Positions 9,140-47,856 of a DNA stretch of 64,000 nt are shown here, one piece after another. The position numbers were made by a program, and so were the translations under genes. A model generated the notes under the pieces. The model had not been told where the DNA came from and made no database searches. It saw only the letters and a program-made list of their open reading frames with translations. Position 1 is the first letter of the stretch. Each line of letters opens with the position of its first letter. The DNA is taken from IMG/VR virus record IMGVR_UViG_3300036939_000049, positions 1-64,000 of that record; one strand, given 5' to 3'. This DNA is from a virus.

Positions 9140-9167
9140 TGTACACGAAAAGTTTACACGCCTCTAA

Positions 9168-9707
9168 ATGTCCAACCTCTTTGCTCCTAAATTAGTGTTC
9201 TTGTGTGCCCCAGATTTTGGGCAGTTTTGGCGCAAGCAGGGGTTAGAGGACTTGTTCTTGGGAGATACCCAAATTGTGTTGCGGTGCGATCGCGAAGACT
9301 ATCAAACCCCAGTACAAGGGGAGCGCAATGTCTTTGTAGATTATTTTGGTGGGGTTCGAGTACAGGTAGGAACGCAGCGGCTGACCTTTAAGGCGTCGAT
9401 TAAAGACCCGCGAGAAACAGCACTCATTATGATGACAGAGCTTGCCAAACCACCCGGCGGCAACCAGCAGGTTATTCTTACCTGCTACGACTACCACAGG
9501 CGGGTTGACCGAAACGATATGGTACGAGGCTTCCGGATCAGGCAAGGTATATTGCATGTAGACAGCGGGACGGGCACCTTGAGTCAGGGGTATATTCATT
9601 GCCCTAGTCGAATGGAAGTCGTGCCTGCTAATCGACAGTACTACACGCAAGGGTTTGGACTAGAGTTTATCGAGAAAGAACGAGATATTTGGAACCTTGG
9701 AGGCTAA
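9168..9707 (+). CDS. Hypothetical protein, possibly virion-associated
   Basis: 179-aa ORF in the portal operon. Confidence 0.5.
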   Translation: MSNLFAPKLVFLCAPDFGQFWRKQGLEDLFLGDTQIVLRCDREDYQTPVQGERNVFVDYFGGVRVQVGTQRLTFKASIKDPRETALIMMTELAKPPGGNQQVILTCYDYHRRVDRNDMVRGFRIRQGILHVDSGTGTLSQGYIHCPSRMEVVPANRQYYTQGFGLEFIEKERDIWNLGG

Positions 9708-9709
9708 AA

Positions 9710-10309
9710 ATGACGCATCCCCTTTATTTTATTGACACCGAATTTATTGAAGATGGGCGTAGGCGCACCATAGACTTAATCAGTATTGGTGTTGTTAGTG
9801 CCGACGGACGCGAGTACTACGCCTGTAATGACGACTGTGATTTATCAAAAGCTAACGATTGGGTAAAAGCAAACGTCATTCCAAGCTTACCTTCAAAACA
9901 CATCGGCACCAATCCAGGCGATCCAAGCGTGCATCCAAGTGTCAGAGACGATATTTTGAAATGGAAAACACGAGACGCGATCGCGCACGACATTCTAGAA
10001 TTTTGCTCTCCTGAAAAGTATGGAAACCCTATTTTTTGGGGGGAATGGGCGAGTTATGACTGGGTCGTATTCTGCTGGATCTTTGGCAACATGATAGATT
10101 TGCCCAAAAACTTCCCTATGAGGTGCAGGGATGTTATTCAGTGGGCAGAAGACCATCTTGGTATAAATGCACAGGATCTACCGTCTAGTCTAGAAACCGA
10201 AGGCAATCACAATGCATTATTAGGTGCGCGATCGGTAAAACGAAAATGGATGTACTGCTTAGATCTTGAGGTGGCTAAAGCCGAAGCGAGGGCACAGTCC
10301 AATGCCTGA
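9710..10309 (+). CDS. DEDD 3'-5' exoribonuclease (Rv2179c/RNase AS-like)
   Basis: FIDTEF, LISIGVV, WASYDWV and HNALLGA motifs; the last Asp of the usual HNAL-x-DA is Gly here. Confidence 0.8.
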   Translation: MTHPLYFIDTEFIEDGRRRTIDLISIGVVSADGREYYACNDDCDLSKANDWVKANVIPSLPSKHIGTNPGDPSVHPSVRDDILKWKTRDAIAHDILEFCSPEKYGNPIFWGEWASYDWVVFCWIFGNMIDLPKNFPMRCRDVIQWAEDHLGINAQDLPSSLETEGNHNALLGARSVKRKWMYCLDLEVAKAEARAQSNA

Positions 10310-10706
10310 TGTCTCTCGTGTACAGCGGCTAAGGGGAGGACGAATTCGGTATCGGGGACGTGTGTTTCCTGGTTTCAACAAGCCTCGACGTATCTCTCAT
10401 CCAAAACATAAGGGTGAAGTTTTAGCAAAAGTAGACAACCGGGTTGCACATCTTCGCTTTGGAAGTAAGTCTCACAGACACAATTATTCGCCAGATGCCA
10501 AGCGAGACTATCTAAGACGCTCTGGTGGTATTCGAGATAAGAGTGGGCAATTAACTCGCAACAATAAACTCAAAAAAAATTACTGGTCGCGTTCGTTTTT
10601 GTGGTCTAAAAACACGCCAACAACTAGCGAAAAACGGTTAAAAAGACGAGCCGCTAACATGGCTCGATTAAATCGATTAATTGCGTTTAGATCTCGTAGA
10701 TGGTAA
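10302..10706 (+). CDS. Conserved basic phage protein (GFNKP...RFG...YWSR type)
   Basis: FPGFNKPRR, VLAK, LRFG and NYWSR motifs recalled from small basic phage proteins; ATG 10302 overlaps the upstream stop. Confidence 0.6.
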   Translation: MPDVSRVQRLRGGRIRYRGRVFPGFNKPRRISHPKHKGEVLAKVDNRVAHLRFGSKSHRHNYSPDAKRDYLRRSGGIRDKSGQLTRNNKLKKNYWSRSFLWSKNTPTTSEKRLKRRAANMARLNRLIAFRSRRW

Positions 10707-10773
10707 AATATTAATGTCAAAACGATCGCGCTCCTCGGCTAAAAGTTCGCGATCGCCTTACCCAAGATAAAAA

Positions 10774-46142: not shown

Positions 46143-47120
46143 TTAAATTGTCCTTGACAAAATTTTCGATGTTGCGCGATCGCGTTGGTTGATTAATCTC
46201 AATGTGTCTTCTGCTACTAGTTTCTCGTCTGGTGCTTGAGCTGGCAAGGCATCAGCGATAAGCGCGATTGCGCCTTTCGGGAACCTTGCTTTAACCTCTC
46301 CTTGGTATCCGACACGAGAAACAATCAGGTTTTGACCTTCTATCAGCACTCCGCCAAGATAAGCCCCATCTTTGGTTATTCGTAAACACCAAGTTTCATC
46401 ATCCAGGAGTGCTGTGAATTCAAGCCCTCGCTTTGTGGCTTCAGCCTCCAGTTGATCTTTGAGACAGGGCTTGTCGGATGCTGAAATTCGCGAGTTGTTC
46501 CAGTCTGTTAAATAAGGGGAGATGTCCGCGATCGCGCAACTACTTGTTTTCGTACCGTTCCAGTTGTAACGGAGTTTAATGCTGCCGTCCTCAACCGGAA
46601 TGACTTCTTTGATGGTTGCCCCTATTTTACCCCGCTGCTCCAAGGCGAAATTCAATGCTTTGACGATTTTACCAGTGGCGACAAAGCTACAGGTTTTCCA
46701 TCCCGAATCCAGGGTGTAGACCAAATAAAATACCCCTTGCTTGGTTTTTCCCAACTTAATAACGCTTTTGATTTGGGTGTCGTTGACGAGGGACTCGTAT
46801 CTGGGTTTACGGCTAGGCGGCTTCAGCTTGATGACTGCAATACCCGCTAACTGAGCCGCCCAACTGCGCTCTTGTTCAAGAGACTCTTCTAAAGTGTCGG
46901 AACGCTGTCCGCGCTGTGCTCGCTCTTTAATCTTGGCTTCTAGCGCCTCAATTCTTTGCTCACACAACTTGAGTGCTGCATCTGGCGCTAGCTTGGTGCA
47001 GTTGATGACAGCTTTCTCGCCAAAGCGTCGAAAGTCTCCAGCTGTTGCTTCGTGCAAGCCTTCTACAAAACGGAATTTTGGCGGATAACGTACAGGGTTA
47101 CTGGCAGGAAGTGCTAACAT
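46143..47120 (-). CDS. Hypothetical protein
   Basis: 325-aa ORF, first gene of a leftward operon. Confidence 0.55.
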   Translation of the reverse strand: MLALPASNPVRYPPKFRFVEGLHEATAGDFRRFGEKAVINCTKLAPDAALKLCEQRIEALEAKIKERAQRGQRSDTLEESLEQERSWAAQLAGIAVIKLKPPSRKPRYESLVNDTQIKSVIKLGKTKQGVFYLVYTLDSGWKTCSFVATGKIVKALNFALEQRGKIGATIKEVIPVEDGSIKLRYNWNGTKTSSCAIADISPYLTDWNNSRISASDKPCLKDQLEAEATKRGLEFTALLDDETWCLRITKDGAYLGGVLIEGQNLIVSRVGYQGEVKARFPKGAIALIADALPAQAPDEKLVAEDTLRLINQRDRATSKILSRTI

Positions 47121-47208
47121 ACTTTGTATACTGACACTACAGCTACAGAAAGAGGGCGATCGCGTACTTGGTCACAGCAGCGCGATCGCTTTGTCTTTTC
47201 TTATTATT

Positions 47209-47236
47209 ACAAGTTGACTATCGACTGTCAACTTGT
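47209..47236. promoter_or_regulatory. Palindromic operator in a divergent promoter
   Basis: acaagttgac-N8-gtcaacttgt overlapping a minus-strand TTGACA box. Confidence 0.65.
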
Positions 47237-47315
47237 TAGTATTCTGAATATCAGTATTTTGGTATATCAGTAAACGAGAGACAATACTTTGGTAGTTTTG
47301 CAAGAGGTTAGGTCT

Positions 47316-47576
47316 GTGCGGGTTTATCTCGACATCAGCGGGTATTGGCCAAAATATGGCGATGGAGAGCCGCGATCGGTTAACTCCGTTCACGAGGCGT
47401 TAAAGGGGACGCCCAACGAAATTGGACGGAATACCCTGCGTTTGGCACTAGAAGGGCGTTTAGACCGTGGACACTTCGCTCATGTGATTAAGTTGCAGCG
47501 TGTTGTGTCGTACTGGGTTGGGAGAAAGGTTTCGTTGGAAGAGTTGATGACAGTAGAAGAGGAGCGGCGCGTGTAA
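47316..47576 (+). CDS. HTH (Cro-like) DNA-binding protein
   Basis: SVNSVHEAL...IGRNTLRLALEG...VSLEELM; GTG start after GAGG. Confidence 0.55.
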   Translation: MRVYLDISGYWPKYGDGEPRSVNSVHEALKGTPNEIGRNTLRLALEGRLDRGHFAHVIKLQRVVSYWVGRKVSLEELMTVEEERRV

Positions 47577-47856
47577 ACTATTCGTGTACATCAAAAACCT
47601 CTGGCTTGGAGCTAGAGGTTTGTTTTTGGGTGGGCGCGATCGCGAATAATGTAATAATAAAGAAGATCGCGTTACGGAGTTTTTCTCCCTGAATGGCTTC
47701 CAGTTAGACAAAAGTTGAAGAATGAATGGGTGTCAATGCCCTGGAAAACTCATTGGAATTTGGTCTAGGTAGCGCGATTACCGCGTGTAAACGTTTCGTG
47801 CACAAAAAACCCCTGGCTTGGAGCTAGGGGTTTGTTTTTGGGTGGGCGCGATCGCG
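47568..47856 (+). repeat. Two ~76-bp direct repeats (47568..47644, 47782..47856), each a 19-bp palindrome plus terminator plus HIP1
   Basis: Hairpin aaacc(t/c)ctggc-ttgga-gctag(a/g)ggttt with a compensatory change between copies, then a T tract. Confidence 0.85.

Follow-up and report, generated by a model that had tools for sequence, protein, structure and literature searches.

The window analyzed here corresponds to the first 64,000 nucleotides of the IMG/VR virus record IMGVR_UViG_3300036939_000049, a linear sequence of 101,252 bp that CheckV estimates to be ~80% complete. It carries a palindrome of 19 bp that recurs mostly between genes, and also inside a gene encoding two fused DNA methyltransferases (MTases). 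Which protein recognizes this palindrome, and what is its role on a phage genome? We consider it rather probable that the palindrome is the docking site of a ParB-type module fused to the double DNA MTase. Fold resemblance, motif statistics, placement along the genome, self-encoded palindromes and plasmid copies lead us to infer that the module binds the palindrome itself. Tethering of the MTase would be the most likely consequence of this binding, a roadblock to transcription in both directions, where transcription units end, being about as likely, and a centromere or genome organizer less likely.

Copies, symmetry and placement of the palindrome

The motif was searched for as TGTACACG-N3-CGTGTACA, with up to three mismatches allowed. 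Nine matches are found in the window vs. 0.11 expected, and none of 100 shuffled sequences reached nine; one half-site, at 42012, comes in addition. The whole record contains 21 copies with at most two mismatches and 25 with at most three, that is ~26 in total with the half-site. The ten positions listed in the original prediction, half-site included, all carry the sequences given there. Outside the record, the exact 19-mer does not exceed chance. It is found in no other IMG/VR contig, once among 185,579 species genomes (a chance match in a GC-rich Chloroflexia metagenome-assembled genome), and in metagenomes as 13 single matches unrelated to one another. The palindrome is real and specific to this phage. 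Because the exact 19-mer is absent elsewhere beyond chance, it is no copy of a host-factor site from a known chromosome. The host-factor sites NtcA, LexA and HLR1 were ruled out on the same ground, and their spacing does not fit either. No Rfam family is found at any motif copy. One metagenome contig unrelated to the phage (L008, positions 683-1570) has similar palindromes of the type TGTACACGG-N-CCGTGTACA, more than 12 of them in a dense array, which came to light only through one unit equal to the phage 19-mer.

The copies of the window are as follows; here and below, placement relies on heuristic gene calls.

9140-9158, + strand: motif copy of the asymmetric class, two mismatches, right arm AAAAGTTTACA; directly after the portal stop codon (0 nt) and 9 nt before the next ATG
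13247-13265, + strand: motif copy, one mismatch; convergent junction, 1 nt past gene 12907-13245, with XRE gene 13278-13685 (- strand) ending 12 nt away
27069-27087, + strand: motif copy, one mismatch; 2 nt past the stop codon of the ribonucleotide reductase (RNR) beta subunit, adjoining the start of the HNH_3 gene
27843-27861, - strand: motif copy, three mismatches, inverted; overlaps the stop codon of XRE/HTH_3 gene 27849-28070 (- strand)
29605-29623, no strand: perfect copy within a 27-bp palindrome (29601-29627); convergent RNase HII/GIY-YIG junction
41108-41126, no strand: perfect copy within a 25-bp palindrome (41105-41129); encodes MYTNRVH at the start of the binding module
41363-41381, + strand: degenerate copy, three mismatches; encodes LSTNHVQ, at the linker position of the homologues' own palindromes
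42012-42030, + strand: half-site, left arm followed by GAAT; spans the stop codon of the fusion gene and is followed by a bidirectional intrinsic terminator (42032-42060)
47572-47590, - strand: motif copy, two mismatches; its TAA is the stop codon of open reading frame (ORF) 47316-47576; adjoins terminator 47593-47623, in a duplicated 77-bp unit
47786-47804, - strand: motif copy, two mismatches; adjoins terminator 47805-47835, 70 nt downstream of gene 47875-48642 (- strand)

Copies thus adjoin or overlap stop codons as first described, at the portal, 12907, RNR beta, XRE 27849 and ORF 47316 genes and at the RNase HII/GIY-YIG junction. The peptides MYTNRVH and LSTNHVQ are indeed encoded by copies 41108 and 41363, and inverted copies do stand on both sides of the HNH_3 gene (27088-27564), as had been noticed. 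The helix-turn-helix (HTH) label of ORF 47316-47576 is not confirmed, as no HTH family matches it in the family-library scans, which took in about 65 of the 130 phage proteins.

The element is made up of two 9-bp arms flanking one central A/T pair (TGTACACGA-A-TCGTGTACA). Ten copies in the record are perfect 9+1+9 palindromes, with some reaching 21-27 bp. In the 15 remaining copies, one arm is perfect and the other shows three recurrent changes only (T11→A, C12→A, G15→T), which are never compensated in the partner arm. Across the copies, 16 positions are almost invariant. Borders are sharp, with information content at background one base beyond the 19 bp, and the flanks are unconserved. Calculated folding energies are of -1 to -4 kcal/mol for asymmetric copies vs. 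-9 to -12 kcal/mol for perfect ones. Because the sequence is kept where pairing is lost, the motif points to a site for a sequence-specific protein on duplex DNA rather than to an RNA or DNA hairpin. A promoter reading was also considered and rejected: no -10 box was found at a fixed distance from the copies, the flanks are not conserved, and a plausible -10 box at 16-18 bp, judged partly by eye, accompanies only 3-4 asymmetric copies.

The copies are biased in their placement. Nineteen of the 25 are mostly intergenic, whereas 20,000 random trials average 3.9 and never exceed 12. Convergent junctions often carry a copy (8 of 12), co-directional junctions sometimes (11 of 88), and divergent junctions never (0 of 13). 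Twelve copies have their center no more than 21 nt from the 3' end of a gene; only three have it that near a start. Five copies adjoin strong bidirectional intrinsic terminators, and a 77-bp unit made up of motif and terminator is present twice, the second time at 47782-47856. In 12 of the 15 asymmetric copies the perfect arm faces the upstream gene; this is a hand count of a weak bias, in which the assignment at convergent junctions is subjective. Along the record, copies are dense at 76-100 kb and absent from 1-9 kb, 13-27 kb and 47.8-67.6 kb. The bias toward 3' ends and convergent junctions fits either selection away from promoters or a roadblock or boundary function. Other repeats are present in the record, as exact or near-exact pairs: one of 47 bp (window 31514-31560 and 32128-32174), and one of 43 bp (record 97376-97418 and 98898-98940) that starts 9 bp after copy 97349 and holds a GC-rich hairpin.

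The C-terminal module and its self-encoded palindromes

The gene that contains three of the copies encodes the following protein.

38551-42027, + strand: fusion protein of 1158 residues, with a C5 MTase (residues 31-457), a D12/Dam MTase (residues 581-799) and a C-terminal putative DNA-binding module
41107-42027, + strand: C-terminal module, residues 853-1158 (306 residues), with a ParB-type helical HTH domain (41146-41556), a KOW/SH3 barrel (~41554-41730) and a helical tail

An in-frame ATG of the module sits inside the 25-bp palindrome 41105-41129. Stand-alone homologues of the module, of ~300-430 residues, exist in cyanobacteria, and 43 homologous loci are found in IMG/VR. In five of the ten viral homologues tested, the module forms the N-terminal part of a fusion with a phage Dam MTase (PF05869). 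A second, stand-alone D12 Dam-type MTase is encoded elsewhere in the window (32235-33059). The leads DUF3102 and Plasmid_parti, suggested by a protein atlas, were abandoned, PF11300 giving no match.

A sequence search of the PDB with the module gives no match. Modeled from an alignment of 35 sequences, its first 137 residues reach a predicted local distance difference test (pLDDT) score of 96.8. Among DNA-binding proteins, the model of the HTH domain matches only ParB-family DNA-binding domains, each over 100-120 residues: ParB-parS (6s6h; Z 7.8, 119 aligned residues), Spo0J (1vz0; Z 7.6), SopB-DNA (3mkw; Z 6.6) and KorB-operator (1r71 and 8qa8; Z 6.1), with VirB (3vwb), P1 ParB (1zx4) and Noc (7nfu/7ol9) at lower ranks or with Foldseek only. 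A fold search with the whole module is dominated by the KOW barrel. The module is predicted to fold as a DNA-binding domain of the ParB/SopB/KorB/Noc type followed by a KOW barrel, a prediction that is good but not beyond doubt. Of the features of the ParB superfamily, the HTH domain (with middling Z scores) and a cognate palindrome in or beside the gene are found. A ParB/Srx CTPase domain (ParBc) is found neither in the fusion protein, nor in the 19 members of alignment A1, nor in 10 viral homologues, the N-terminus being occupied instead by the two MTase domains or by a short helical lead. Because this domain and, in the ~80% complete record, a ParA or actin NTPase partner were looked for and not found, the protein is not a member of the ParB-CTPase family.

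The homologues encode palindromes of their own, in the codons directly after the HTH (after "..VV(E/D)NL"). In 20 of 37 distinct IMG/VR homologues, the linker palindrome is significant at p≤0.05 when compared with codon shuffles, and many reach p<0.005. The sequences of these palindromes differ widely from one homologue to another with symmetry retained, as illustrated by TTTGGCAACAATTGTTGCCAAA, TGTGTCCAATTGGACACA and the sopC-like TGGGTACCACGGTACCCA. Some homologues (P0003, P0009) have linkers with 3-5 tandem repeats. Moreover, related pairs of homologues differ by compensatory changes (TTTGGCAACAATTGTTGCCAAA vs. TTTGACAACAATTGTTGTCAAA; TGTGTCCAATTGGACACA vs. TGTGTCCCATGGGACACA). Paired substitutions such as ...GGCAAC.../...GTTGCC... 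vs. ...GACAAC.../...GTTGTC... keep the symmetry while altering the encoded amino acids, which argues that selection acts on the DNA dyad and not on the peptide. The closest cyanobacterial homologues have in common a 9+1+9 layout with a GTAC or CCA-W-TGG core; TGCCGACCAATGGTCGGCA in the homologue at 257308-258237 on pCC7120alpha of Nostoc PCC 7120 and TGACAACCAATGGTTGTCA in Nostoc HK-01 are examples. The cyanophage contig L021, which carries the closest viral homologue, holds three different 23-bp palindromes, and copy 41363 of our phage (LSTNHVQ) occupies the linker position of the family, aligning codon for codon with the first of them (LCTNSTQ). In a k-mer screen of the homologue loci, only an array resembling clustered regularly interspaced short palindromic repeats (CRISPR) and tandem repeats came up. 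A CRISPR-like array on L021 (12853-13540) has about nine repeats of 36-37 nt with a 72-bp period and lies 2 kb downstream of the gene for the MTase-binding-module fusion.

Sites inside or beside the gene of their own binder have precedents. In Bacillus subtilis, a parS site lies inside the spo0J gene. In phage lambda, the iterons of the origin are within linker codons of the gene for the O protein, which binds them; an origin function is not indicated for the module family, since some homologues sit beside Mu-type transposases. MTases of the M.SsoII type have an attached autoregulatory HTH that recognizes a palindrome at their own gene. Unlike the sites of this phage, known MTase operators are found upstream of the gene and show no dispersal.

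Dispersal is seen on some plasmids. In PLSDB, 103 records carry the domain family, mostly from Nostocales with 14 from Streptomyces; these are large plasmids, often with several genes of the family each. On the Nostoc plasmid pC052_C, a 23-bp palindrome (TTTGCCGACCA-W-TGGTCGGCAAA) is located in the linker of the homologue at 211.4 kb and recurs at 41.0 kb, between genes, and at 189.6 kb, in an unannotated gap by a tyrosine recombinase and a CyRepA1 replication gene. One of these two extra copies differs at the central base only. Other Nostocales plasmids have 2-4 copies of their palindrome. Altogether, the fused C-terminal domain, proposed as the binder from the outset, is the best candidate, in view of its ParB-family fold model, of the palindromes that homologues encode at the same linker position and of the recurrence on pC052_C.

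Proposed docking and other possible roles

In the mechanism we propose, a dimer of the ParB-type HTH module, located at the C-terminus of the C5 and Dam MTase polyprotein, would dock on the double-stranded 19-bp site. The module may also be produced alone, from the in-frame ATG within copy 41108. The family would retain one site of its own in the linker codons that immediately follow the HTH; this phage would have multiplied it to ~26 copies, in promoter-free gaps at the 3' ends of genes. Docking would then hold the two MTase domains on the phage's own DNA, rich in highly iterated palindrome 1 (HIP1), at places where the bound complex cannot disturb promoters. A task connected with methylation is likely because five of ten viral homologues are Dam fusions and the phage protein is itself a double-MTase fusion. 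Targeting of methylation by the module is plausible, given its repeated fusion to MTases.

Several observations weigh against such docking. No Pfam or NCBIfam model covers the domain of the module. The top structural match of the domain is the Raf1 alpha-domain (Z 10.7), and the Z scores of 6-8 obtained with ParB-type proteins are in a range where helical domains can match by arrangement alone. Since the CTPase domain is absent, tethering would act only locally, without spreading or sliding in the ParB manner. Of all copies, the most degenerate is 41363, at the conserved position of the family. Simple docking does not explain why the asymmetric copies are weakly biased in orientation (12 of 15), and the two XRE regulators, which also have copies at their 3' ends, are possible alternative binders. 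Finally, homologues had been expected to carry different self-encoded palindromes dispersed in their own genomes. The first half of this expectation holds in 20 of 37 homologues, and extragenic copies exist on pC052_C; in 21 viral homologue loci, no second copy of the embedded palindrome is present within ±10 kb. Judged from these sequences, only this phage and a few plasmids show dispersal, and the 26-fold amplification is peculiar to the phage.

By analogy, the system may work like KorB-OB, N15 SopB-IR, Noc-NBS and Spo0J-parS. KorB of the IncP-1 plasmid RK2, with its OB sites, likewise has a ParB-family DNA-binding domain and a short palindrome scattered over the genome of a mobile element, with some sites far from promoters, and it combines regulation and maintenance (PMC11790492). 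However, KorB has an N-terminal CTPase domain and slides as a clamp, where the phage protein has two MTase domains, and the OB sites of RK2 cluster at or near promoters whereas the phage copies avoid promoter regions. To our knowledge, the KorB gene has no OB site in linker codons. The SopB protein of N15, with its sites IR1-4, and sopC of F are also close: N15 is a protelomerase phage with scattered palindromic sites for a ParB-family protein, and several palindromes of the module family are sopC-like (PMC7205306, PMC2910045). N15 has four sites and a SopA ATPase partner; our phage has ~26 sites, without any ParA match in the record, and its candidate binder is part of an MTase fusion. Noc-NBS and Spo0J-parS (7ol9, 4umk) provide many dispersed palindromic sites for a ParB-type protein, with a cognate site inside the coding sequence of the binder. 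These systems are chromosomal and CTPase-bearing, with sites mostly inside genes, whereas the phage sites are at gene 3' ends; unlike in the module family, their embedded site is not at a linker position conserved across the family. The stoperators of Cluster A mycobacteriophages (L5 gp71; PMC9283540, PMC6550527) are 20-35 near-identical sites in tiny intergenic gaps, touching stop or start codons, in temperate phage genomes. Many near-identical sites in short intergenic gaps are found here too. Stoperators are asymmetric, of 13-14 bp, bound by a monomeric immunity repressor (PMC9283540) and all oriented with transcription, whereas the phage sites are 19-bp palindromes, ten of them perfectly symmetric, with a weak orientation bias and with a ParB-like, MTase-fused protein as candidate binder. 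Thus, the phage system resembles stoperators in placement, not in site symmetry or in binder.

With the same binder, bound dimers could act as protein roadblocks where transcription units end, as factor-dependent terminators or insulators working in both directions. They would be a palindromic analogue of stoperators, useful in cyanobacteria, which are Rho-less, and perhaps in a plasmid-prophage state. We regard this as possible rather than probable. The occupancy of convergent junctions and the vacancy of divergent ones (8/12 vs. 0/13) and the copies touching stop codons speak for it, as do the five adjoining bidirectional terminators with one duplicated motif-terminator unit, and the perfect arm turned toward the oncoming gene in 12 of 15 asymmetric copies. 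Moreover, the family's own site lies inside a coding region, where autoregulation could work only by blocking elongation, and stoperators are a precedent for dispersed elongation blocks (PMC9283540, PMC6550527). Nevertheless, promoter avoidance alone accounts for the placement, and a roadblock would be redundant where intrinsic terminators adjoin. Copies 9140 (9 nt before the next ATG), 27069, 80253 and 93278 are inside tight operons that leave no space for a new promoter, so that a constitutive block would cut off essential late genes, and the gene of the binder belongs to the replication module, probably expressed during lytic growth. Still with this binder, the copies could form a dispersed centromere or organizer of a linear plasmid-prophage, as first proposed with a ParM-like actin as partner, on the model of the four SopB sites of N15, the OB sites of RK2 and the NBS sites of Noc. 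This appears rather unlikely to us. The phage does encode a protelomerase (PF16684, E 8e-19), inverted motif copies enclose a perfect even palindrome of 26 bp (record 67734-67759), the domain family is common on large plasmids of Nostocales and Streptomyces (the 103 PLSDB records), some of its palindromes, TGGGTACCACGGTACCCA for instance, are sopC-like in form, and N15 makes use of dispersed IR1-4 sites (PMC7205306). Against this, no ParA (PF13614) or ALP_N (PF17989) match is found in the ~80% complete record. The supposed ParM-like actin gene (54656-55759) has no Pfam, PHROG or NCBIfam match and stands in the 20-kb motif-free stretch at 47.8-67.6 kb. The domain is devoid of the N-terminal CTPase and of the ParA-contact region, the divergent neighbors of the plasmid homologues are not ParA, and 26 sites are far above known plasmid centromeres.

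A different binder would be involved if the copies were operators of a phage XRE regulator (13278-13685 or 27849-28070, both on the - strand), in a repressor network like that of P1 C1 or L5 gp71. A 19-bp palindrome with ~10-11 bp between half-site centers does suit an HTH dimer, copies are present at the 3' ends of both XRE genes, and the copy at record 67846 overlaps a predicted -35/-10 pair. This explanation is nonetheless improbable: copies are missing from all 13 divergent (promoter) regions, even from the ones belonging to the XRE genes, the distance to a -10 box is not fixed, and the three copies in the MTase module are left unexplained together with the family-wide self-encoded palindromes. 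Finally, the copies could be elements acting at the nucleic-acid level or for themselves, such as small dispersed repeats of the repetitive extragenic palindromic (REP) type, RNA 3' hairpins, or targets of recombination, homing or telomere resolution, which accumulate where insertion is tolerated. We find this the least credible of the explanations. The bias toward 3' ends and convergent junctions is REP-like, each of the three free-standing HNH or GIY-YIG genes has a neighboring copy, the 3' flank of the HNH gene 81957-82487 is joined directly to a motif copy in a minor metagenome contig, identical asymmetric variants recur, suggesting copying, and a small tyrosine recombinase is encoded in addition to the protelomerase. 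Yet most copies form no stable hairpin (15 of 25 fold weakly) and compensatory changes within the phage are absent, and no flanking sequence is shared. REP-type repeats are hairpin-forming imperfect palindromes that a RAYT-type transposase mobilizes; no Y1 transposase was seen among the ~65 scanned proteins. Tyrosine recombinase cores and integron attC sites have arms 6-8 bp apart; here the length is odd and the arms are 1-3 bp apart. A protelomerase target is one even-length perfect palindrome per genome, whereas the motif is odd-length with ~26 copies, and a genome cut at 26 sites would be broken into pieces. No joints produced by inversion or deletion between copies are seen at appreciable depth, and the two IscB/HEARO units have no copies nearby. 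In Logan contigs, no strand-changing joints were found at motif pairs or at the 26-bp palindrome. The suggestion that inverted copies are cassette-exchange sites is not supported, because recombination joints were not seen at motif pairs and the 1-3 bp center does not suit a tyrosine recombinase core.

Genome context and significance for the family

The HIP1 octamer GCGATCGC occurs 131 times in the record vs. ~1 expected, and the host is therefore taken to be a cyanobacterium. The only sequencing run with the record is a biocrust DNA metagenome, probably its source. The nearest isolated relatives are Pseudanabaena phages, with a portal protein 24% identical; no IMG/VR relative was found by portal, and four members of the module family gave no tblastn match among 50,697 isolated phage records.

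The protelomerase has 326 residues (PF16684, E 8e-19; record 79026-80006, - strand), and its gene lies between two perfect motif copies (78953 and 80253). Among the even-length palindromes of the record, a single one is perfect; it measures 26 bp (ATTTTTGCTGATTAATCAGCAAAAAT, 67734-67759) and is 11 kb from the protelomerase gene, between inverted copies 67636 and 67846. From its sequence, it is a candidate telomere-resolution site. A literature search found nothing linking protelomerases with cyanophages.

The record has further features. A Xer-like tyrosine recombinase of 192 residues, reduced to the catalytic domain, is encoded at record 76681-77259 (- strand), with a palindrome having 15-bp arms (record 77269-77302) 10 bp upstream of its start. 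A CHASE3 histidine kinase is encoded at record 80279-81697 (- strand). Two complete IscB-like units (window 49769-51297 and 52970-54497) are ~82% identical in DNA to each other, each made up of a HEARO/omega RNA (Rfam RF02033, 147 and 132 bits) followed by a gene for a 427-residue RRXRR+HNH protein; a 51-bp piece downstream of the first unit (51342-51392) recurs at record 89259-89309. In metagenome contigs, a form without record 75305-75729 (425 bp) has about the same depth as the form with it, an indel polymorphism that is not bounded by the motif. In one low-depth contig (9x vs. ~120x), a motif copy with "cg" after it (L019, 3636-3656) is joined to record 82484, directly ahead of the last bases of the HNH gene 81957-82487. 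This joint weakly hints, with 21 letters on one side, at a strain without the HNH gene and with a motif copy at the junction.

A search of the literature retrieved no description of the module family or of linker-encoded palindromes, and nothing relevant for the motif, DUF3102 or PF05869. We tentatively raise the possibility that the family forms an undescribed class of CTPase-less ParB-type "self-addressed" modules, with a palindrome in their linker codons, common on plasmids of Nostocales and in uncultured phages and repeatedly fused to MTases. Here, the address would have been amplified 26-fold, either to set up bidirectional boundaries that depend on the protein where transcription units end, the host being Rho-less, or to load the MTase onto the phage chromosome. 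An uncharacterized protein family thus acquires a candidate DNA target and a candidate recognition rule, which is to read the palindrome in the linker codons. More than 100 sequenced plasmids of cyanobacteria and Streptomyces carry this family, among them pCC7120alpha from the model strain Nostoc PCC 7120; many uncultured phages have it too, frequently as a fusion to Dam. The reason why phages attach ParB-like modules to methyltransferases becomes testable. The natural amplification of the site, from 1-3 copies on plasmids to ~26 in the phage, could show whether the role is that of a regulator, a boundary, an organizer or an enzyme tether, and orthogonal pairs of proteins and sites could serve as tools in cyanobacteria.

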